64,000 nucleotides of DNA from positions 37,526 to 101,525 of the IMG/VR virus record IMGVR_UViG_3300032335_001269; one strand, given 5' to 3'. This DNA is from a virus. Its lineage: Duplodnaviria; Caudoviricetes. Within the stretch, counting starts at the first letter, position 1. The number at the start of each line of letters is the position of its first letter. The notes beneath the pieces are model-generated. The model saw only the letters and a program-made list of their open reading frames with translations. It made no database searches and was not told the origin of the DNA. This document shows positions 8,718 to 59,691 of this stretch, in pieces. The position numbers were made by a program, and so were the translations under genes.

Positions 8718-9119
8718 TTATCTTGTTGCCTCTAATATGAATGAAAATTGTTGTGTTGGTACTTCTTGCCCAATAATATCAAAAATTACAGTCACTTCAA
8801 ATTCATTTGTGTCTGGACTTGGATTGACTTCAACGTCCACATTATCAACTCTAGGTTCATAGTTGGAAATTGTATTTATAATTTGCTCCCTGATTACAGA
8901 TGCAGTTGCAAAATCAACAAACTCAAATAAACTAGAGCGGACATCAGATCCCAAACTTGGATTAAAAAATCTTTCATTTGGGATTGTTTCTACAAGATTG
9001 CGAATTGAGCGTATAATTGCATTTTGATTTTTCAAAATTGGCAGATCTTTTGTCACAGGATGTGCTTCAAAAGACAGGCTAATATCTTTAAATGATCTAG
9101 ATATTCGTGTGACTGCCAT
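8718..9119 (-). CDS. gp25: Baseplate wedge subunit gp25
   Basis: FKDISLSF, ERFFNPSLGS and YEPRV motifs; adjacent to gp6. Confidence 0.93.
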   Translation of the reverse strand: MAVTRISRSFKDISLSFEAHPVTKDLPILKNQNAIIRSIRNLVETIPNERFFNPSLGSDVRSSLFEFVDFATASVIREQIINTISNYEPRVDNVDVEVNPSPDTNEFEVTVIFDIIGQEVPTQQFSFILEATR

Positions 9120-9140
9120 TGGATATGAAATTTCTTGGAT

Positions 9141-9148
9141 TATTTATG
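9141..9148 (-). promoter_or_regulatory. T4-type late promoter (CATAAATA) for gp25-gp6-gp7
   Basis: NATAAATA about 20 nt upstream of the gp25 ATG. Confidence 0.6.
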
Positions 9149-9149
9149 T

Positions 9150-9392
9150 TTATTTCCAGAGAGATCCATATCCAGGCTCAGTCCCATATTCCCAATCATC
9201 ATAATCTTCATCATTACGAATTTTTTCATGAAGTTCTTGTTGTTTCTTTAAATCATGTTTTGGTGCCAAATCATGCATAACCTCTTGAATGACTCTTTTT
9301 GATGGTACATTTTCATAATCTGTAATCAGGTGAGTAGTTCCCCACATTTCTCTCATATAATTCGAATCTCTATCTACTGGTAAGTTTGACAT
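9150..9392 (-). CDS. Conserved cyanophage hypothetical protein
   Basis: 80-aa ORF with AGGAG SD; resembles the small ORF commonly found upstream of gp25 in cyanomyophages. Confidence 0.75.
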   Translation of the reverse strand: MSNLPVDRDSNYMREMWGTTHLITDYENVPSKRVIQEVMHDLAPKHDLKKQQELHEKIRNDEDYDDWEYGTEPGYGSLWK

Positions 9393-24672: not shown

Positions 24673-25169
24673 TTTAGTAGTTTATAACCTTTACAAGTTG
24701 TTCCAGGATTGCGTAAAGTTCTCAACATAGTTCCAGATGAAGAATGATTTAAAACCTCACGGCACCATTTTGTGAGATTTGTGATTTCAATAGTTTCGCC
24801 AGTTGGTGTTTCAATCAGTCGGGTTTTTGCTTGTGAATATTCTACATTATCAGCATTACTCATCCACTCCAAGTTATCAACTCTATTATCAGTTTTATCC
24901 TCGTTGATGTGATTAACTGTATCATAGTTATGGGGATTTGGAATGTAAGTTTCTGCCACTAATCTATGAATACTTGTATTTTTCATTCTGTTTGTGTTTT
25001 GTTCCAGAATGATTATCAGATAACCTTTTTTTGACAGTTGTGGTTTTAGTTCTCTTTTATAAGAATAATCAAGAACTTTTCCTTTACCATTACCCCCAGG
25101 TTTTTTGTGTGAGAATACTTTACCATCTGGTGTGATAGAGTATTCTGGATAGTTTGGAATGAGTTTCAT
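24669..25169 (-). CDS. HNH homing endonuclease (NUMOD4/HNH type)
   Basis: YSITPDGKVFS, IHRLVAETYIPNP, VNHINEDKTDNRVDNLEW; late promoter TATAAATA at 25194-25201. Confidence 0.92.
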   Translation of the reverse strand: MKLIPNYPEYSITPDGKVFSHKKPGGNGKGKVLDYSYKRELKPQLSKKGYLIIILEQNTNRMKNTSIHRLVAETYIPNPHNYDTVNHINEDKTDNRVDNLEWMSNADNVEYSQAKTRLIETPTGETIEITNLTKWCREVLNHSSSGTMLRTLRNPGTTCKGYKLLK

Positions 25170-25226
25170 AAATGACTGGAAGTGATTTATCTTTATTTAT
25201 AAGTATAATACCTCCAGTCACATTAG

Positions 25227-25580
25227 TCAACGTTTGTAGAGGTAACTTCCGTGCCAAGTTGCATTCTCAAGCAACCATTCACGCTGCTCAATGATGCGAA
25301 GGTCATAACGAACACCTTTGGCAGGTGCTTTGAGACTCGCAGGTTTGTAGATTTCACCAGTCTTTTTATCAATGAAGCAATGAATGCTGTCACGACGACC
25401 ATCAATGCACATAAAGATTTTGTGATACTTACGACCCGAAGAATTAAGTTCGTAACCATAACCATCAGGAGCATCTTGAATGAGAGCATCACACAGCATC
25501 AGACCATACTTAACAACATTCAACTGAATGGTGTTACGGGCGGTTTGCTGGGCAGCGTAGTCAGCGAAGGTGGCAGTCAT
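25227..25580 (-). CDS. Conserved phage hypothetical protein
   Basis: GRKYHKI...HCFIDKKTGEIYKPAS.KAPAKGVRY motif. Confidence 0.8.
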   Translation of the reverse strand: MTATFADYAAQQTARNTIQLNVVKYGLMLCDALIQDAPDGYGYELNSSGRKYHKIFMCIDGRRDSIHCFIDKKTGEIYKPASLKAPAKGVRYDLRIIEQREWLLENATWHGSYLYKR

Positions 25581-30659: not shown

Positions 30660-32599
30660 TTTTTCTCTCCAAAAAAGAGTCAAGTGTATCTAGATCGTTC
30701 AGAAATTCCCTGCTATTTTTCATATCATGATAATAAGACCAGAGAGCATTATGCACATCCATAAGATTATCAATCCAGAAACCTGTAGGGTAGATTCCCA
30801 GTGCGTCCATAAGAGCACGATGAGAGCAACCCCCACTTTCTGCCTTACACATAATGTAACAAATTGCCTGAACCATATCCAGTTTGTCTGATTCAGAAAG
30901 CATAAAATACTTTCCTACTGCTCTCTGCTTTGCCTCTTCAGTTTCTTTTTGAAGTTGCTTACAAGCATCAGAATCCCACCATTCTTGCAATGCTTTGCCG
31001 AATTCGTTATGTTCAGTCATCTTTATGAAAAAAATTGCCAAAGAATCCGGAGTCACCTGATTTACGATTCTCAAGTTTATCTAGAAGACTATCGGTGGTT
31101 TGTAGAGTTTCAATGCGATGAATAAGGTCTGCAATTACACTACAAACCATTGGGCGCTCTTGACGGGCAGCATATGATAGAGCATTACGCAGTGCTGCTT
31201 CTGCTTCTTTAAGTGATTCTTCAACTGATTGTGATAGTGCCATAATTAATTTGCCTTTTTAATAAGATAAGATCCATCACCATTATCTACCCATTCAACT
31301 CTATCACCTTCGTTAAGATTTGCTGCTTCTAAAAGGTCTTCGGGAAATGTTATACAATATTCATCTTTATCAGTGTCTTCATCTCTGACCACTTCAACAG
31401 GAAGAACCCACTTTTTTACTTTATCCGTCTTTTGATTGGCAACCAAATACTCAAGGTCACTATGACCCCAAGGTCTCATACCATCATCAGTTTCCTCCCA
31501 AAAAGAAGTCCAAGACTTTTTACATTCTGGTGATGGATCATTTTTATCACAAGACAGTTGTGATTCTTCAGGATAATAAGTCTTTTCCCAAGCATCCCAA
31601 CCTTCAATATGCCCCTTACCATTACCATTCAGTAGTGCCAAGAGATCATAACAACGACCAGTATGATGCTTGAAGTAATGATACTCTTCATTCACAACAC
31701 CTTTGATGGTATCATAGATTTCCTGTGGAGACACTTCCGCAGAAACCAAAGCATCTCTCACCCAAGTTTCTACTTGTTTAAGGGAATGTTTTTTGTAGTC
31801 AAAGTCACTCATTTTCATAGTCCTTGATTGCTTGTTCTATTATAACACCCAACTCTTTGCCGGTCAATCCATTCAACCATTTCCAGTTTGGGTCTTGCGG
31901 GTCCCAATCTGCTGTATAAGACCCATCATCGTTCTTTGTGATTCTAAAAGTATCTTCCATCAGAACCAAGAACCATTCAGTGATTTATGAGATTGCTTCA
32001 GTGCCTTGTAAAGTTTTTTAATTTCTTGATAAGAATCTTCTGGTTTCATCTTCCCACCAATTGCCATATTTGTCAGATAGGAGACGTGATGAGAAAAGTT
32101 ATTGAGATTGTTGATTTGAGCAATTTCAAGAAAACTCATATCAGCATCTGGACTAATTGGAGGAGTTGGAAATAAAAACTCCTCTTTTGCTTGCTTTGCA
32201 GTTGTCATTTGTCGAGTGTATAATTATTTAAATTATAAGGTTCTGATGCCAGAATGTCAATCCTTTCATCTATACCATTCATAGAGTTCATAATTTCATA
32301 AAGAACATTTGTGGTTTCAATGTTTTCTTCTTCAAGTTTTTGAACTTTCATTTCCAATTCTACCAATCTCTTATAAACATCATCCATAGGGACTTCATCT
32401 AACTTGCCCCACTTCTTTTGAAACCAGTTTGCATCACTCATAATACACCTACAGATTTTAAATAACGACGATATGCCATAAACCTACCTACACTTGGTTG
32501 CCCTGAAACATTCAATTGATGGCAGATTTCACAGTATTGAATCCATTCGTACCAAGGAGTTGTAGGATCTAATTCGTGATAAGGATAATCTTTACTCAT
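30616..32599 (-). other. Small hypothetical ORFs (30616-31074, 31013-31243, 31246-31818 with C-terminal AbrB-like domain, 31960-32208, 32205-32441, 32438-32599)
   Basis: ORF track; ITFPEDLLEAANLNEGDRVEW in 31246-31818 is AbrB-like. Confidence 0.7.
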
Positions 32600-33287
32600 A
32601 TTCTATTTTCCAACCATTAGTACAAATTCCATTTCTAAAATGTAATCCACAATACATTGTATCATATGATATTTTATGTTGCATACAAAAATTTCTCAAT
32701 CCACTAGAAATGGAATATTTGTTTCCAACATCATCAATTATAGCATATTTTTTTAAATTAAATGCCCTTCCTTTCTTTGCCCTAGATAATTTTTCTTTTG
32801 TTTCTTCTGTAAAAATTCTACCCTTACGAGACTCACTCATTTTTTGTTTTGTTGCTTCAGACAATTTTCTTCCTTTTAATTTGTCACTGATTTTTTGTTT
32901 AGTTTCTTCGCTTATTACATTTCCTTTCAAAGATTTACTTATTTTTTCTAAATGTTCTGGTGTAAAAGTTCTATCTTTTAGAGATTTACTTATTTTATTT
33001 CTCAATTCCAAAGACCTAATTGCACCAGAAGAACCATCACCACCATCGGTTCTATTATACAAAATACCAGTTCCTAAATCTTTTCTACCGAATACAGCAA
33101 TCATATAAATTTCGTGTTTGAATGCTTCCTCTTCAATTAAATTTTGTTTTAAAAAAATAATTCTTGATTTATCTTTTGGTGGTTTTATTTCATTTTTTGT
33201 TTTTTTATAAATTCTTTTTCCACTTCCCTTACCAATATAATAAGGTGTGCTGTCTTCACGCAAGTATGCGTAAGTGTAGTATTCCAT
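32592..33287 (-). CDS. GIY-YIG-type homing endonuclease with NUMOD3 repeats
   Basis: True start MEYYTYAYLR...PYYIGKGSGKR; E.YMIAVFGRKDLGTGILYNRTDGGDG; repeated SEET(K)QK(I/M)S...KG; late promoter at 33311-33318. Confidence 0.88.
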   Translation of the reverse strand: MEYYTYAYLREDSTPYYIGKGSGKRIYKKTKNEIKPPKDKSRIIFLKQNLIEEEAFKHEIYMIAVFGRKDLGTGILYNRTDGGDGSSGAIRSLELRNKISKSLKDRTFTPEHLEKISKSLKGNVISEETKQKISDKLKGRKLSEATKQKMSESRKGRIFTEETKEKLSRAKKGRAFNLKKYAIIDDVGNKYSISSGLRNFCMQHKISYDTMYCGLHFRNGICTNGWKIEYE

Positions 33288-33319
33288 CTGCTTTTTGTTT
33301 GTGGTAATACTATTTATAG

Positions 33320-33378
33320 AAGAAAAGGAGCATTTCTGCTCCCAATCTTTGCCTTTGAATAACCACAAACAAAAGCAT
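33320..33378 (-). ncRNA. Candidate two-hairpin antisense sRNA for the downstream endonuclease gene
   Basis: Own late promoter (33382-33389), hairpin 1, GAUU linker, terminator GGAGCA-GAAA-UGCUCC-UUUU; the 5' segment is complementary to the endonuclease 5' UTR (33289-33305). Confidence 0.6.
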
Positions 33379-33384
33379 TATTAT

Positions 33385-33615
33385 TTATAGTTTATAATCC
33401 ATACTACCAGAATACTTACTCACATTTTCTCCATTATTTTTGGATTCAAACTTATTTTCCTGCCGGAATTGCAATAGAAAACGGGTTGCTGATATACACG
33501 ACTCTTCAGTGAGAGAGGTGATAAGTCCATTACCTTCTTTGTCCGTCGAATACCAGAGTCCATACTTTTTTTCATCGACATAAAAGGCATCATCGATTAG
33601 TTTCTTTTCGGTCAT
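33385..33615 (-). CDS. Hypothetical protein
   Basis: ORF track; IDD.FYV....G.W.S.D.EG..LITSL. Confidence 0.7.
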   Translation of the reverse strand: MTEKKLIDDAFYVDEKKYGLWYSTDKEGNGLITSLTEESCISATRFLLQFRQENKFESKNNGENVSKYSGSMDYKL

Positions 33616-33720
33616 TGACTTTCTTTACAGTTTCGTGCAGTTCTTTAAGTGCTTGAATGGTTTCAGGAGTTTCTTCCCAACTCCAATCATTGTCATTTTT
33701 GTCTTTATAAGTTCTTTCAG

Positions 33721-34746
33721 TCATAGTGTAATCCACCTTTCGTTTTTAAGAGTCCAATTAGTTACTTCTGCGATACGTTCCCGAACAGATTTGGCAGGTT
33801 CCCATCCCAGTTCTTTCATTTTATCACCGTCCAATGCATAACGCAAGTCATGTCCGGGACGCGAAGAATGAAAATCAACAAGTTCATAATTTAATTCTTT
33901 TCCTTGAGCATTTGCAATAATTTGAGCAAGTTCAAGATTATTTAATTCTTCTGAACCTACGATATTGAACTTTGGACACTTTGCGTTTCCCCATGTAGAT
34001 TCAAATTCACCTTCATAGTTCAATAAAAATAGAACAGCAGATGAAACATCTTCAGCGTGAATATAATGCCTCGATCCGGGAATAGTTTTAGTAGAATCAC
34101 TATGAATCGTTACAGTTTCGCCATCACGAATTCTACGAATACACATTGGAATATATTTTTCAGGATGCTGACGCTCCCCAAACACATTCATTGTATGAGT
34201 AATATAAATTGGCAATCCGTAAGTATTCTCATAAGCAACAGCGAGTTCTTCACCACCTGCTTTTGTAGCACTATAGGGGTTTGTGGAATTATAACGATCA
34301 TTTTCCTTATACTTGATTCCATCAGGAGCAGGTCCAAAGACTTCATCAGTACTGAAGTAAATAAACCTTTTCAGGTCATTTTGTTTGCGGGCAAACTCAA
34401 GAATGTTACAAGTTCCAACAACATTATCCAACACAAATTCCATTGGATAATCAATACTGCGATCCACATGAGAACCAGCAGCAAGATGTAGAATGTAATC
34501 AACTTGCCCAACTTCAGAACAAACCAGAGGGTTCATTTCTGCTTTTAAATCATGATGAATTACCTTGACACGTTTGCGAACTTCTGGATCAAAGGAAAGC
34601 ATCAGATCATGAAGACGATTCAAATTTCCACTGTAATCAAGACGATCAAGAGTTACAACCTCCCAATCAGTCGTTTTAAGAATTTGTCCGATCAAGTGGT
34701 GGGCAATGAATCCGGCGCCACCAGTAATTAATGCTCGTTTAGTCAT
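33721..34746 (-). CDS. rmlB: dTDP-glucose 4,6-dehydratase-like NAD-dependent epimerase/dehydratase
   Basis: TGGAGFI, LAAGSHVDRSI, STDEVFG, PYSATK, RPGHDLRY. Confidence 0.92.
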   Translation of the reverse strand: MTKRALITGGAGFIAHHLIGQILKTTDWEVVTLDRLDYSGNLNRLHDLMLSFDPEVRKRVKVIHHDLKAEMNPLVCSEVGQVDYILHLAAGSHVDRSIDYPMEFVLDNVVGTCNILEFARKQNDLKRFIYFSTDEVFGPAPDGIKYKENDRYNSTNPYSATKAGGEELAVAYENTYGLPIYITHTMNVFGERQHPEKYIPMCIRRIRDGETVTIHSDSTKTIPGSRHYIHAEDVSSAVLFLLNYEGEFESTWGNAKCPKFNIVGSEELNNLELAQIIANAQGKELNYELVDFHSSRPGHDLRYALDGDKMKELGWEPAKSVRERIAEVTNWTLKNERWITL

Positions 34747-34962
34747 ACTTGTAACTCAATTGAATGTCTTTCTTTTTTAGATTGTAACGGTCAATGTGCT
34801 GCTTTCGATGGTCTTCAGTTTGAAAATAGCACTTGCGGGTTTCTTTGCCATCTTTATGAACCAATTTATAAGGAAACTGGTCAAAAGGAAACTCTTCAGT
34901 GTGTTCCATAATGTTGATTGCTCACGGTTTTGAGTATAGGATGAGATGTGGGATTTGTCAAG

Positions 34963-36742
34963 TCATTTAAATCCTTTTGTCTTCTCTTTGATATCTAACA
35001 CTTCAATATGACTCAAAAATTGATTTGCTGTTTGCAACCACGCTGCCTGCACTTCCATATAATCTTCAAAAACAATCTCCCTACCATTAGAAAGAATCAA
35101 CTTGTAATGATGACGATTATAAGGGTCGTTTGATGTTTGCTTAAATGTCTTCACTTCTTGTTTATCGTTGTCAGTAGAGTCCAAAACCAAACCTCCACAA
35201 TAATTAGAATAATAATCTCAACAAATACTGGTGGAAGACTCATTCTTCATCATCCCACAATGCTTTACGATTCATAAGTTCTTTAATTCTCTCCACCACA
35301 GCAGGGTCTTGTGGTTCATTGATTTGTCGCACAAGTTCATCATAATCCTCTACTGATAGAGTAATCTTTGGTAGTTTTTGTGCCAATCTCAACCTACGTT
35401 CTGGACTGATAGTTAGATTGTAGGGGTCATCGTAAGGATAGATGTATTCTTGAAACCAACCAATACTCAAACTCTCCCAGAACTCACCATAACCCCATTC
35501 ATCACCGTCATTATAACAGTCAAGAATATACAGGACATTACGAAATCCATCAAGGAAAAGTTCTAATTTTGTTGGGTTTTCAAATCTCATAATGTTTCAT
35601 CCACAATTAGGCATCCAGATGGTAGAGAGTTTGTTTTTCTTTGCAGTGATATTGAAGTGGTCAATCTGCCCATTCTTATGATAGATTCCGCACCAGAGGA
35701 ATCCATCATCCATCATCTCAAAGTGTATCATATCTATGTCCTTGACGACAATCTCATCAGGATTCTTTTCGTCGTTCATTTCTTCCACTTCCACTCACTT
35801 TTGATACTCCACTCTGGTCTAATGTAGGAGTAGTTTAGATAATCCCAAAAAATGCCTTGATAATCCTCAAAGTCCCATTCAGGGTCAGTTCCATCATAAG
35901 TCATCAAGTCTTTCCACAACTGAAAACATATCTTAAAGAGTTTCATTATGCTTTATTGAAGTGTAAACGAGTTTGCCAGATAGTTAGACTTTTGTCTCTC
36001 AACATATGAGCAGTCATATCAGGAAGAAGTCGTGTATATCTATCAAGAAACTCTCTTTCGGTGAGTTCTTCTGCTCCTTGTAAATAATAATCATAATTTA
36101 CAAAGTGTTTCCACTCTTTCTCATAATGTTCATCATTGTGATTATTGAGTGAGATTTGAAGATAAATTGACCTTCCATTTCCAGTCCCATAATAATCAAT
36201 CGCAAAGAAACGATAGAGTGGTTGTTCAGTCATCTTCACCAACCTTCATTTTATCAATATAAAAACCACCAGGAACATTATGTGGTCTCATATAAAAAAC
36301 AATTTCATCACCACGAGCAAGTTGTTCTTCAATTCCTTCCATAGTTCCATACATTCCAGTTCTTACAGATTCTGGAATTAAATTAAGTGCATCTTCAATT
36401 GTTTGTCGTTGTTCTTGTGTTAGTTTAGTCATTTACTTCTCCTTTCAGGTTTCTAACTCGTTCAAGAAATGCAGTTGCTTGTTCGTCCAATCGTGCAATC
36501 AAGTCCTCAATATCACTAATTGCAATCTCATTATACTCACGATTGAGGTTCTCACAACGAAGTGCGTCAATTGCGGACTGTAGGGTGATGATTTGCATAT
36601 GTTCCATCGTTATAGGCATACCTTGAGGCATACCAGAGGTTTCAAGATTATAAAAATCATTATATCGTTGAAGAACACGATTACTTTTTTCCCTCCTTTC
36701 GGCAACCTCAAACATCTCATCAGGATAAAACCTGTCTTCCAT
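34963..36742 (-). other. Run of small hypothetical ORFs
   Basis: Packed minus-strand ORFs 34963-35190, 35240-35590, 35597-35794, 35946-36242, 36226-36432, 36425-36742. Confidence 0.7.
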
Positions 36743-36822
36743 AATGGTTCCTTTGATTTCTCATATTATACAACAAAAGGCACCTGATTTCAAGTGCCCT
36801 TGTACCAGTTCTTCAAGTGTCC

Positions 36823-37518
36823 TTACAATACTCTAACTCTTTTAGAAGTATCTATATTTCTCTTTCTTTGATATCTTGTAAGTGGACCAAAAGTTGATAC
36901 AACCCCAGTTTCAAGACACATCCATTTTTGAGAATTTATCACTTTTGCTGCTTTTCTACCATCTTCAGTCATTTTTTCTTTTGTTCTTCCGTGAATACCA
37001 ACACCAAGTTCATAAGTAAGTTTTCCAACTTTACTTGAGTGTTCTATTATTTCTTCTTTTGTGAGTCCAAATATACCAATACCAAGTTCTTTTATTTTTT
37101 GACCACCCCTTCTACCATCTTTACTCATCTGCTCTTTATTTCTACCACAGACCCCAGTTTTATTTTCTTTAGATTTTTTCCCTGATATTTTTCCACCCAT
37201 CTTTCCTGCTTTACTTTTTTGTTCTAATGAAAAATTTCCACCACAACTTTCATTCAAACACCATTTATCTGTATTGAAGAATGGTTTTATCAATCGTTTT
37301 TCAACTTCTTGTGATTTCATCCATCCATCACCATTATAATCAAAAAATTCCAATATTTGTTTCTTTGGTGTATAAAGTTCCCAACACCATTTATGAGTTA
37401 TAGGAGTTCCCCAATACTCTTCATCAAATACTTTTTCTTTATGAACTCCATAATAGTAATATGGAACTTCTTCAAAAGTAATTTTATATAAGTATATTCT
37501 TGGACTTTGTGAAGTCAT
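36823..37518 (-). CDS. Seg-like (GIY-YIG-related) homing endonuclease
   Basis: IYLYKITF...YYYYGVH...YWGTP, E..LI, CLNE..GG; G(I/V)(F/H/C)G.TKE repeats; late promoter at 37544-37551. Confidence 0.75.
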   Translation of the reverse strand: MTSQSPRIYLYKITFEEVPYYYYGVHKEKVFDEEYWGTPITHKWCWELYTPKKQILEFFDYNGDGWMKSQEVEKRLIKPFFNTDKWCLNESCGGNFSLEQKSKAGKMGGKISGKKSKENKTGVCGRNKEQMSKDGRRGGQKIKELGIGIFGLTKEEIIEHSSKVGKLTYELGVGIHGRTKEKMTEDGRKAAKVINSQKWMCLETGVVSTFGPLTRYQRKRNIDTSKRVRVL

Positions 37519-37552
37519 CGTAATCTTGTTAGAACGGCATTATTATTTATAA

Positions 37553-37612
37553 TAGAAAAGGTGCCCGAAAGCACCTAATCTGTCCGTAGAGAATTGCCGT
37601 TCCAACAGACAT
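37553..37612 (-). ncRNA. Candidate two-hairpin antisense sRNA for the downstream endonuclease gene
   Basis: Own late promoter (37616-37623), hairpin 1, GAUU linker, terminator GGUGCU-UUCG-GGCACC-UUUU; the 5' segment is complementary to the 5' UTR (37524-37539). Confidence 0.6.
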
Positions 37613-37766
37613 TTTTATTTATCAGTATTTTCTTTATCCTGTTTTTCTTTGAGTTTCTTTAATTGCTCTCTACCATAAGTCGTTAATTCCTTTTTAGTAT
37701 TTCTCAAATTCTCAATTTCACTTTGAGAAAGAAAGAAAGCATCAGGAATATGCCCGTATTTTTCAG

Positions 37767-40700
37767 TCATCGCAACATTTCCTTGATTTTACGCAAACAA
37801 TCATTAAATCCATCAACAAGCAATTCAGTATCTACATTTTGACTTCCTGCTGCTGATTGTTCTTTCGGCAACCATTCTTCTACTGCGGATATAATATCAT
37901 CACAAGTTGCTGAAATATAATCATATTTGTTTGACAAAATATTCCAAAGTTTTTGAGATTTATGTTTCTCCACCAATCTATTCACAACCTCATCGGTAAT
38001 GTATGAAGCAGGATTATCTTTCTTATCCCAATATGCTCTCACATTCCTATAAGGTTCATCAGGACAATGTGGTTCATTATCCTTTGATTGTGCTGCCTGA
38101 AAACCTGCTTGGAATCCTTGCCACCTTGTATCATCATATTTGGAATCAGTTTCCAATTCAGGATATTGCCCCCACCAAACTCTGTATGCGTTTTCTACTG
38201 GTGATTTATATGTCTCAATCTCTTTGAGGAGTTCCAACTTTTTTTGAAGTACTTTAATTTCTGCTTCTGTTTTTTGAATATCGGGGTTAAAAGTCATTTG
38301 TTTAAGATAAGGAGTAGCATCCATCACACCATCTTTCTTTGCTTGTCTAAAAGCATTACGTAGACCTTCATCTACTTGCTCTGGTGTTTGTGGTTTTGGT
38401 TGAAATTCAGTCATTGTTTGTCAGTCCTGTTTGTTCTTCCAGTTTAGCATAGTTTGCTGCTTCCCAACCAGCAACAAAAGATGCGTGAATCCAACCATAC
38501 ATAATGTCCTCACGGGTCTTTTCGTCTTCTACTTTACAGTCTCCATAAAACCACTCACTACGAAAAGTATAAAGACTATAAAAGTCATTGAACCATTTTA
38601 CAAAGGCATCCTCTGCTTCATCGTGAAAGTTCCAGTTGTTGGTTGGATGTTTCATAAGTCTAATGGTTGCTGGGGGTCTCTTTTCCAAGTTTCCTTATAA
38701 GTAATCCACCGTTCCACACCAATTTCTTGTTGAGCAACCCAGTGTATTCCATTCTCATCAATCGCATCAAGATGATGAACACCAGTCTTGGGGCAGATGA
38801 CTCTGGATACTTGTGTGAATTTTAGTTTGTTAGTCATTCTTCCAAACTTTTAATACATTTTTGAATCAGGTCATTCCATCTCTTTGGAGTAAGTTTCTCA
38901 CTCGCATAAGAACTCCTAAAAGGATACTTATACCAATAAAGTCTAAAGTTTTCACTTGGGATTTCAAAGTTAGGTTTATCCATTTCATCTTCTTCATCAC
39001 CCCAATAATAAGGACGGATGATAAAGAAATCGTTGGAGAAATGTGGAGTGTATCCATAATCTTTTTCTCCTGTCTTTTCTGTAATCGCATCAATCAGGAT
39101 TTGGAATGGACCACCCATCCATTTCTCACGAGGAACACTATATTCCTCTGTGGGATTTCCAAACAACATTTGCCCAAGTTCAAGTTCAGTCATTTTCTTT
39201 CATACAAGGGTATTCAAACTTTTCACCAATACATTCTAACATAGTGCGGGCAAAGGTAATCTCACCATAAGCACAACCATCTTCAAAGGCATCATCATAA
39301 CTACCAGCACTTGGAGTATAATCATCTCCATCTACATCATAGCAGTGTTTTACCTCTGCGTATTCTTTGAGAACCTTGAGGAGAAGTGTGAGTTTTTCTT
39401 CGTTAGTCATCTTTTGCTCCATCAAGGTAATCACCAGTAGTATAAAGGAATAAGACAGCAGTTATAACCAGAGAAGAAATCCAAAAGTTATCACCGACAA
39501 TTGAATTTACTCCAAAAACTAAAAAGTAAAGTAGTGGTATTTGAAGTAGATATTTGATTAAGAGTTTCATTTGAAAATACCAACAACATATGCTATTCCC
39601 CAACAAAGAATGATTGTTTGATAAGCATTCAGTAAAACAATAGTGTTGAGTTTCATTTTACCCCCAGAAGTTCTCTTTCTTCATCAGTCAAACGAGCAAG
39701 AAGTTCTTGTCGTTTTTGTTCTTTGATTTCCTTTTGTAGTCGTTCTTCCAATTTTTCATCAAGAACATCCATCATAGTATCAAAACTATAACACCCCTTG
39801 TTCCAGTTGCTCTCAGCATTTTGAGTGATGAATACTTTTTCCTCAAACTTTTCTGGACGGAACATTTCAAAGATACGGATTACATAATCCCCATCTTTGT
39901 CCTCACGAACCTCAACACTTAAATCAAGTTGTTTTGCTTTGGAAAAGAGTTTGAGAAGTTCAGTTGCTTTGATAGTCATTTCAAATTCCGCAAAGTGTGA
40001 ATAAGTTCTGGAATATAAGACCGATGAATATCCATCACATATTCACTCTCAGGTTCATCAGGTTGTCCCAACCATACTCTTACAACTTCATTTTCAATTT
40101 GAGTGTAGAAAGGATTATCTTTGTGTTTTTCTTGTTCCTTATGTTTTTGGATTTGAAGTTCAAGTTCGTTGAGTTGTTCTTCGGTCAGTTGTGTAAGGTC
40201 AATCATCAGGTTTCTGTGTGTATGAGAGTATTATAAGGCATCCAGAGACACCCAGAGCATCCCCTGTGCCAGTTCGTCAAGTGTCCAAATAAACCTCAAA
40301 GGTTATTTTATTCATATGGTCTCCAAATTCCATATTCATACTTACCACCTGTGCCTTATCATTTTGGAGTTTTTCTGCTACTTGTTGAAATGATGCTTTC
40401 AAGTCATCAAGGTCATAAGATTTGAGTTTTGGAAATTTTGGTTTCTCTACTGGTTTTGGAGGTTCTGGTGGTTTTGAATTGTAGAGTTCATTATATTTTT
40501 CAATTAGAGGATTATTAGTCATCCTTCAACATCTCCACTCACTACAATAGGTTCTACATCACCACAGACAACTTCTGCTTTCATTTGTTCCATAATAATA
40601 GACACCTTATCCATAACTCTTTCTCTGGTTTCTTGTGTCCAAATACTATTTCCAACGACACTCAAACTTTTATAAAGAGTGTTATGAATTACCATTAAAT

Positions 40701-59380: not shown

Positions 59381-59427
59381 TACGGTAAAGACATACTTAA
59401 TGTTATTTATATAACTTTACCTTTTAA

Positions 59428-59500
59428 TACCCGTGAGTGGATTCGAACCACCGCTTGGAACATTTTAAGTGTTCTGCCTCTTCCGCTGGGCTACACGGGC
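59428..59500 (-). tRNA. trnL: tRNA-Leu(UAA), short variable loop
   Basis: Acceptor GCCCGTG/CACGGGT-A; anticodon arm GAACA-CTTAAAA-TGTTC; T-arm GGTGG-TTCGAAT-CCACT. Confidence 0.88.
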
Positions 59501-59542
59501 GTGATGTATGACAATCATAGCAAGTCTTGCTTGGATTGTCAA

Positions 59543-59614
59543 TGGGTTATGTTGGATTTGAACCAACGACTAATCGGTTAAAATCCGAATACTCTACCGC
59601 TGAGTTAATAACCC
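59543..59614 (-). tRNA. trnK: tRNA-Lys(UUU)
   Basis: Acceptor GGGTTAT/ATAACCC-A; anticodon loop ATTTTAA; T-arm GTTGG-TTCAAAT-CCAAC. Confidence 0.88.
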
Positions 59615-59618
59615 AGAG

Positions 59619-59691
59619 TGCTCCTTGTCGGGATCGAACCGACCTTAGCCGAATTATGAGTTCGGAGCTTTCGCCAGAGAGCTAAAGGAGC
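59619..59691 (-). tRNA. tRNA with CAU anticodon (elongator Met or Ile2)
   Basis: Acceptor GCTCCTT/AAGGAGC-A; CCGAA-CTCATAA-TTCGG; lacks initiator features. Confidence 0.88.

Follow-up and report, generated by a model that had tools for sequence, protein, structure and literature searches.

In a stretch of 64,000 nucleotides (nt) from a virus (Duplodnaviria; Caudoviricetes; IMG/VR record IMGVR_UViG_3300032335_001269, positions 37,526 to 101,525), two homing endonuclease genes (HEGs), here named HEG1 and HEG2, are each preceded by a compact unit of hairpins and promoter-like motifs. Throughout, the whole of this 64,000-nt stretch is called the window. Each unit is probably a portable expression-control cassette of freshwater T4-like cyanophages, which would move together with a free-standing HEG and silence it on read-through RNA, while transcripts from a late promoter inside the cassette would escape the silencing. 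From 5' to 3', the generic order of parts is xATAAATA (the upstream motif, P2), 5 nt, an arm (A) contained in hairpin 1, a purine linker, a GC hairpin with a U-run, the late promoter motif P1 (TATAAATA), a further 5 nt, and a second arm (A'') which is the complement of A and ends 2-4 nt 5' of the ATG of the homing endonuclease gene.

In the mechanism proposed here, transcripts arriving from upstream would be stopped in part at the GC hairpin and U-run, and in the RNA that reads through, arm A would pair with arm A'' over 14-20 bp and cover the ribosome-binding region to 2-4 nt before the AUG, so that the HEG would go untranslated on that RNA. Since P1 lies between the two arms, late transcripts would have their 5' end in the first bases of A'' and, being without arm A, would be translatable. 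P2 and hairpin 1 would be accounted for most economically if, late in infection, arm A were in addition produced as a terminated RNA of about 52-62 nt. The core of this mechanism is the known logic of T4 I-TevI, T4 gene e and Aeh1 mobE, in which a cis hairpin contains an internal late promoter, and the complementarity of the arms is fully explained by this established cis mechanism, which a first-pass annotation of the window had mentioned and set aside in favour of a dedicated antisense RNA gene. What is new in the cassette is the terminator nested between the arms, together with hairpin 1 and the conserved promoter-like motif 5' of it. Since the cis model works without these parts, a discrete antisense RNA of 55-60 nt stays plausible.

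Occurrence of the cassette and its linkage to homing endonuclease genes

Scanning of viral contigs with an 18-nt core motif gave at least 124 loci (122 usable, two being the window's own). Among the matches listed, 89 of the 122 have inverted arms flanking P1, and 82 of those are distinct; TAAATA stands 4-12 nt 5' of arm A in 78 of the 82, the other four plainly not being cassettes. From the listed matches, 76 distinct units were placed in an alignment, A1, with one locus that is identical to the second window unit (L122) omitted. Because the core motif had itself chosen this first sample, protein-anchored samples were added, consisting of 19 loci with relatives of HEG2 and the best 80 of 427 loci with relatives of HEG1. 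When a covariance model of the full cassette (R1) was applied to these, a cassette ending at the gene start was found in all 19 HEG2-relative loci (E <= 2.3e-7) and a cassette before the gene in 65 of the best 80 HEG1-relative loci. Across the scans, more than 100 copies are present among the matches listed.

With R1, six cassettes were found in the isolate S-SRM01, which was also the only phage matched when a cassette was compared by BLAST with isolated phages. B23 has at least two cassettes and a variant. The 101.5-kb contig from which the window comes has just the two window cassettes. No cassette was found by R1 at E <= 1 in Syn9, P-SSM2 or S-CRM01, and none in S-PM2, where the lone match (E 0.059) is a plain terminator with a late promoter. 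Copies within one genome carry different arms, with 5-6 arm sequences in S-SRM01, four on one contig and two in the window. DNA of the window is present in 20 DNA sequencing runs, which are freshwater metagenomes.

Several single loci are described here for the record. In S-SRM01 (record MW015081, 56059-56742), the HEG2-type gene behind one of the cassettes has been deposited as 'hypothetical protein'. At four loci (L009, L113, L010 and L101), intact-looking or near-intact cassettes stand before truncated open reading frames (ORFs; 43, 5 and 31 codons), and at L101 the 3' arm has decayed and no ORF follows; these four are probably decaying HEGs. An insertion of about 11 nt at L155, L156, L168, L193, L200 and L229 leaves a degenerate TATAAA(C/G) 5' of a working P1, and at L156 the P1 position is occupied by ACTAAATA. 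At L077, the cassette begins directly past the 3' end of an apparent transfer RNA (tRNA) gene. A conserved small ORF within the short RNA was considered and ruled out, since the ATG that follows P2 reads GTG or ATA in many copies.

Covariation and folding

The first-pass annotation had predicted that the 5' arm would covary with the adjacent 5' untranslated region (UTR), and this was observed both in a duplex-swap test, which is independent of any alignment, and in a test on alignment A1. Over the 76 units, the duplex between arm A and its cognate UTR has a free energy of -21.0 +/- 2.1 kcal/mol, as against -9.0 +/- 4.0 kcal/mol for non-cognate pairs, and the cognate UTR took first place for 48 of the 76 arms and one of the first three places for 67. 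In A1, which was aligned by MAFFT, the long-range structure pairs 86.4% of cells, compared with 41-54% when the partner is slid, a control that is somewhat flattering because the structure goes back to folds of the very sequences under test. Per-sequence folds were used for this structure, since MAFFT followed by RNAalifold on full units recovered just nine long-range pairs, the arms being of different lengths. Changes on both sides were found in 16 of the 17 A:A'' pairs, with a score that was reached by 0 of 500 shuffles.

Hairpin 1 was found in all 76 units, with a mean of -6.6 kcal/mol versus -3.3 kcal/mol for chimeras, and its outer helix has both-side changes in six of six pairs, with 86.5% of cells paired. 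Since hairpin 1 and the A:A'' helix both covary, arm A coevolves with two partners, namely A' in hairpin 1 and A'' in the UTR.

The RNAs of the two window units fold in agreement with this arrangement. The short RNAs, taken from just past P2 to the U-run, form two hairpins (-23.0 and -22.7 kcal/mol, z -4.3 and -4.4), and 0 of 200 shuffles folded as well. The read-through RNAs (131 and 136 nt) fold into a long A:A'' stem with the terminator and P1 inside it (-34.6 and -38.5 kcal/mol, z -5.0 and -5.6), and the RNAs that begin at the P1 start leave the start site unstructured (0 and -1.7 kcal/mol). The same arrangement, with A:A'' pairing of 14-20 bp, is found across the family.

The folds of both window units also place the bases complementary to the predicted messenger RNA (mRNA) 5' end in the loop of hairpin 1, as had been noted in the first pass, and in 76 of 76 aligned units the loop of hairpin 1 supplies the bases for at least four of the pairs with mRNA nt 1-8. 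When the short RNAs of the two window units are cofolded with the UTRs, the change in free energy (ddG) amounts to -11.5 and -11.4 kcal/mol with the cognate UTR and to -1.9 and 0.0 kcal/mol with that of the other unit, so that the predicted interaction is both favourable and specific. These observations speak for an addition to the cis mechanism, not an exclusive rival of it, in which the unit from P2 to the terminator would be a late gene for an antisense RNA of about 52-62 nt, whose loop would capture the 5' end of the P1 mRNA and close the ribosome-binding site in trans, much like a type I antitoxin RNA or IS10 RNA-OUT. This addition is put forward tentatively, as a possibility of less than even weight. 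Hairpin 1, which is dispensable for the cis model and nevertheless present in every aligned unit with covariation in all six pairs of its outer helix, speaks in the same direction. The term 'antitoxin-like', used in the first pass, would apply to such an RNA as an analogy only.

The two window units and their genes

Both units lie on the minus strand, at 33389-33285 (unit 1) and 37623-37516 (unit 2), and their parts stand in the identical order that the first-pass annotation had described. The start (+1) of a P2 transcript is predicted at the sixth nt past the motif, by the spacing rule known from T4. In unit 1, P2 (33382-33389) is a late-promoter-like TATAAATA sharing bases with the TAA stop codon of the DUF7468 ORF that lies upstream (33385-33615), and the predicted +1 at 33376 is the first base of arm A (33376-33362), which is contained in hairpin 1 (33351-33376). 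The linker, a GC stem-loop (33343-33326) and the U-run UUUUCUUC follow at 33319-33349, with TTTCTTCT directly after the stem. P1 (33311-33318) is a TATAAATA late promoter motif within the long hairpin, and the predicted late-mRNA 5' UTR (33288-33305) consists largely of arm A'' (33305-33290), which is the complement of A and ends 2 nt 5' of the ATG at 33287. The letters of unit 1 thus run TATAAATA, ATAAT, GCTTTTGTTTGTGGT and onward through arm A and hairpin 1, AAGATT, GGGAGCAGAAATGCTCC and then TTTTCTTC, followed by TATAAATA, GTATT, ACCACAAACAAAAAGC (arm A''), AG and ATG.

In unit 2, P2 (37616-37623) is GATAAATA, not a perfect TATAAATA, and it provides the TAA stop (37617-37615) of the ORF at 37615-37770. 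Hairpin 1 (37582-37610) contains arm A (37610-37595), with 37610 as the predicted +1 of the P2 transcript; the linker AGAUU, the GC stem-loop (37576-37559) and the U-run UUUUCUAU occupy 37552-37581; P1 (TATAAATA) is at 37544-37551; and the predicted late-mRNA 5' UTR (37519-37538) includes arm A'' (37538-37523), the complement of A, which ends 4 nt 5' of the ATG at 37518. In both units the GC-rich stem-loop with its U-run was called as terminator-like by a consensus scan. The 'late promoter 2' of the first pass therefore stands as a perfect motif in unit 1 and as an imperfect one in unit 2, and the GAUU linker named there occurs in some copies, the family-wide feature being a purine-rich stretch that pairs with the U-run.

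Co-directional ORFs adjoin both units upstream, and in both units P2 overlaps the stop codon of the upstream ORF. The pattern CCTTTTCTNNTATAAATA, with 16 specified bases, occurs exactly twice in the 64-kb window, these being the two units, and TATAAATA occurs six times, all on the minus (coding) strand and three of them inside the units. No sigma-70-like site was called by consensus scan on the minus strand within either unit, and the motifs that are present there are of the late type.

HEG1 (32592-33287, minus strand) encodes a homing endonuclease of 231 amino acids (aa), and its final codons overlap the start of the ORF at 32438-32599. HEG2 (36823-37518, minus strand) encodes a homing-endonuclease-like protein, also of 231 aa, and is absent from related phages. 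The two proteins are not detectably similar (BLASTP best E 0.11), and both match PHROG 314, 'homing endonuclease' (E 6.7e-19 for HEG1 and E 2e-5 for HEG2). NUMOD3 is present in HEG1, for which the only match to a Pfam GIY-YIG family is a sub-threshold one to LEM-3 GIY-YIG (E 0.1). For HEG2, no match was found in Pfam and nothing meaningful in a search of Protein Data Bank sequences, and an AlphaFold model built from a seven-sequence alignment was too poor for use (mean predicted local distance difference test 49, predicted template modelling score 0.26). The first-pass description of dissimilar endonucleases of GIY-YIG type is thus upheld as to dissimilarity and homing endonuclease character, while Pfam GIY-YIG is reached by neither protein; since there is no such match above threshold, the GIY-YIG label is purely a motif reading, and it is least firm for HEG2.

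Elsewhere in the window, late-promoter motifs on the minus strand at 9148 (CATAAATA; region about 9100-9160) and 25201 (TATAAATA; region about 25150-25230) are flanked by short inverted repeats (TGGATATGGA/TTCATATCCA and TGACTGGA/TCCAGTCA, respectively), whose 3' arm adjoins an ATG and whose scores are near the chance range; these sites may represent plain cis hairpins of late genes other than HEGs. Three tandem tRNA genes are located at 59428-59691 (minus strand), followed by TATAAATA at 59411.

Mobility and modularity of the cassette

The first-pass proposal of a shared modular architecture that travels with the endonuclease genes is supported by a related phage contig which bridges the HEG2 site without the insert. 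In this contig, which is 564 nt long, 36823 is connected to 37666 through 34 diverged letters, and both the cassette and HEG2 are missing. In an alignment made by eye, the HEG2 insert would start at GATAAATAA, that is at P2, and end just past the HEG2 stop, and the target stretch GGACACT appears to be present on both sides of it. For the other locus, contigs from two runs skip 32591-33475, the region of HEG1 and its cassette.

Two further features of these regions were observed. Directly past HEG2, at 36765-36801 (minus strand), there is a terminator-like hairpin with TTGAAA-17-TATAAT (11 of 12 matches) in its loop and tail, a composite of terminator and early promoter which resembles the early-promoter stem-loop elements known as PeSL; this hairpin is native to the intergenic region, since the HEG2-less contig continues into it. 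In addition, 1022 nt (33719-34740) are missing from contigs of three runs, in which 33718 is followed by 34741 with a 7-nt shared junction, and the gene at 33721-34746, which is GDP-mannose dehydratase/epimerase-like, is therefore a presence/absence gene among close relatives.

At least six N-terminal types can be told apart among the ORFs downstream of the cassettes; type representatives match the homing-endonuclease families PHROG 314, 655 and 5123, and one of them has a Pfam GIY-YIG domain. The arm 'CCTGTAAGTCGCA' precedes five of these types (MTSQSPR, MNYLK, MEYYTYAYL, METPKEY and MELKEY), and conversely many arm sets, and several terminator stems too, occur before a single endonuclease type. 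As the same arms stand before different types and many arms before one type, the arms are not a property of the nuclease. This bears directly on the 'guide-like' role that the first pass had offered as one option, in which the RNA would be a guide or cofactor that directs the endonuclease to a nucleic acid. Such a role has only co-location with nuclease genes to recommend it, and it is highly improbable given that one arm set precedes at least five unrelated N-terminal types, that one HEG type has many arms, and that the only conserved complement of the arm is the UTR of its own gene; moreover, the PHROG 314, PHROG 655 and NUMOD3 HEG families are presumably protein-only enzymes.

The upstream motif and the question of a separate RNA

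At P2, TAAATA is invariant in 76 of 76 aligned units and is present in 55 of the 57 protein-anchored units, one of the two misses being cut by the end of the locus; the background of this hexamer is 78 per 101.5 kb on the coding strand. In 74 of 76 units it is followed by 5 nt and then a purine, the first base of arm A, while the spacer, arms and stems vary freely, and this TAAATA-N5-purine geometry is shared by P1. On the contig from which the window comes, ATAAATA occurs 23 times on the coding strand versus once on the other, and CTAAATA eight times versus twice, with several intergenic, promoter-like placements; CTAAATA also stands at the P1 position in L156. The fixed spacing, the geometry common to P1 and P2, the strand bias of CTAAATA and the position of P2 at the left edge of the mobile insert all argue for the tentative antisense RNA introduced above, which would need P2 to be a promoter.

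A number of observations weigh against the cassette reading given at the outset. The search of sequencing runs with window DNA returned 0 RNA runs, and promoter activity at P1 and P2, the efficiency of termination, translational silencing and any action of the short RNA are inferred here from the DNA letters, as distinct from the structures, their covariation and the linkage to HEGs, which the analysis demonstrates. There is no clear Shine-Dalgarno sequence, only an AGAG/AAAG-like stretch, and for this reason the statement that the arm covers the ribosome-binding site depends on position (-3 to -22). Among the 57 protein-anchored units, a perfect TATAAATA is present at P1 in 53 and at P2 in 11, and in 16 of the 57 P2 is CTAAATA, off the published consensus NATAAATA (PMC2984593). 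At least five T in the 8 nt past the GC stem were counted in 31 of 53 scored protein-anchored units, using a rule that requires a GC-closed stem since the folds pair the purine linker with the U-run; as the U-run is short and interrupted, termination may be weak. Finally, the overlap of P2 with the upstream stop means that its conservation could be due in part to a role as stop signal or boundary.

A second type of cassette must also be considered, which is present in 10 of the 80 HEG1-type loci (L167, L175, L178, L184, L185, L188, L202, L212, L215 and L235). About 110 nt 5' of the HEG start it has one long hairpin (GGAGG/GTGGG...CCTCC/CCCAC), often with a T-run after it, in the apical loop of which lies an 11-14-nt arm complementary to the ribosome-binding site (anti-RBS arm; e.g. 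GTGTCTTGGCG), followed by a late promoter and a complementary arm directly before the ATG. This type keeps the arms and P1, with an upstream TAAATA in some copies and no consistent P2, which belongs with the points against; the principle shared by both types therefore needs no dedicated promoter.

For the antisense RNA in particular, the 0 RNA runs, a P2 that is mostly sub-consensus and overlaps stop codons, the variable U-run and the second cassette type count as adverse. To these can be added that P2 and P1 would fire together, so that the benefit of a co-expressed repressor is hard to see, and that R2, a covariance model of the stretch from P2 to the U-run in which RNAalifold kept just five pairs, detected short units in S-SRM01, B23 and the window's own contig only as parts of full cassettes (extra matches at E 0.67 and 0.19).

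The overlap with stop codons has suggested a different reading, in which P2 would not be a promoter at all; TAAATA(A) would instead be a left boundary that supplies a stop in two frames, or an AU-rich site of RNase E type, hairpin 1 and the terminator would form a stable 3' end for the upstream mRNA, and arm A would act in cis only. The upstream stop lies within P2 in 54 of 77 units (offsets -1, +2, +6 and +9) and no more than 8 nt before it in a further 13, P2 coincides exactly with the start of the insert, and RNase E processing of HEG transcripts has been described for T4 segB and segG and for Aeh1 mobE in the account of PMC2988022. A stop codon, however, takes up 3 nt in one frame and calls for no invariant hexamer, and TAAATA is kept in 21 of 77 units whose stop lies outside P2, with two units having no upstream ORF of at least 40 codons. 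The hexamer is, furthermore, the core of the late promoter of this lineage, as seen in the 23 versus 1 distribution of ATAAATA, and a stabiliser of 3' ends does not need a covarying second hairpin built from the anti-RBS arm. On balance this reading is likewise of less than even weight, slightly below that of the antisense RNA.

In all copies the terminator adjoins P1, with the U-run 2-10 nt 5' of the P1 TATAAATA. This arrangement and the conservation of P2 would also be expected under tandem-promoter interference, where polymerases that start at P2 and end at the U-run would occlude P1 and throttle the HEG, and the arms would silence read-through RNA only. Since the covariation of hairpin 1 and the loop geometry are left unexplained by it, interference is considered improbable.

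Implications

HEGs are selfish DNA and would be tolerable to a phage only if nearly silent. The cassette suggests that one lineage has packaged HEG silencing as a portable, recombining module, in which a terminator, a late promoter and an anti-RBS arm are combined, perhaps with a dedicated antisense RNA gene, and which serves at least six families or types of endonuclease. Neither window unit has a match in Rfam 15 at gathering thresholds or up to E = 5, in keeping with the first-pass remark that this is not a described family, and with its abundance, three-way covariation and lack of an Rfam model the cassette is ready for RNA-family curation.

A 2010 review remarked that T4 had so far yielded no characterised small RNA that acts in trans (PMC3014915). 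If the antisense RNA is real, it would be the first class of trans-acting regulatory RNA described in T4-like phages, and the cassette would be a self-contained, context-independent module of a nuclease with its matched repressor RNA, with dozens of orthogonal arm specificities. It would in that case offer dozens of natural orthogonal pairs of small RNA and UTR, tractable in the isolate S-SRM01 with its six copies.

Comparison with known systems

In IS10, the antisense RNA-OUT pairs through its hairpin loop with the 5' end of the transposase mRNA, RNA-IN, and so limits transposase. The cassette would be analogous in that a mobile element limits its own nuclease or transposase, with loop-to-5'-end geometry (here in 76 of 76 units) and coverage of the ribosome-binding site. 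RNA-OUT is transcribed from the opposite strand, whereas arm A forms an inverted repeat with the UTR, located 70 nt before the HEG on its own strand, with promoters in tandem. Type I toxin-antitoxin systems with a separate small antitoxin RNA, such as tisB/IstR-1 and zor/orz, likewise have a short RNA gene (putative in the cassette) beside its target and complementarity of 15-20 nt to the 5' UTR; their target is a membrane peptide, whereas that of the cassette would be a DNA endonuclease belonging to a selfish element, with both putative promoters of the phage late type and on the same strand.

PeSL cassettes, as described in PMC2839356 and PMC4122927, are similar as small modules of terminator and promoter that are repeated in plastic regions of T4-like genomes and tied to gene shuffling, but they have an early promoter of sigma-70 type and no anti-RBS arms, while the cassette promoter is of the late type; the word 'cyanophage' does not occur in the available text of the 2014 paper (PMC4122927). 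The CfrI RNA of S-PM2, from the accounts in PMC2984593 and PMC5931967, is also a non-coding RNA of a T4-like cyanophage that is linked with a homing endonuclease gene, but it is about 225 nt long and antisense through HEG and psbA coding regions, and S-PM2 has no cassette detected by R1.

Closer in genomic setting are the 'fractured gene' loci described by Dassa et al. (2009; PMC2677866) from ocean and lake metagenomes, which are cyanophage-like and in which, as in HEG1, the 3' ends of HEGs overlap the next gene. Hairpins were reported there in the 5' UTRs of 15 of 16 free-standing HEGs, 10 with TATAAATA inside, and were read as translational in the manner of mobE. The sequences printed in the supplement (Fig. 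S4B) are simple 55-65-nt hairpins with no second hairpin or upstream TAAATA in the printed stretches, and the word 'terminator' does not occur in the main text as available (Dassa et al., 2009). A full-text literature search, with most subscription papers outside its scope, found no description of a composite cassette or small RNA before phage HEGs.

The nearest relatives in mechanism are the T4-type hairpins of T4 e, soc, 49, I-TevI, I-TevII, I-TevIII and segB and of Aeh1 mobE, among which e, soc, 49, I-TevI and mobE are treated as established examples of a cis hairpin with an internal late promoter in PMC3014915 and PMC2988022. As set out in these sources, an upstream arm pairs with the initiation region on read-through RNA, TATAAATA lies between the arms so that late transcripts escape, and the device is used for homing endonuclease genes, all as in the cassette. 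The cassette differs from these hairpins in its loop of about 65 nt, which contains a conserved terminator-like hairpin, in a 5' arm that has its own covarying hairpin and a second late-promoter-like motif before it, and in that the whole is mobile and common to many HEG families, with dozens of arm variants.

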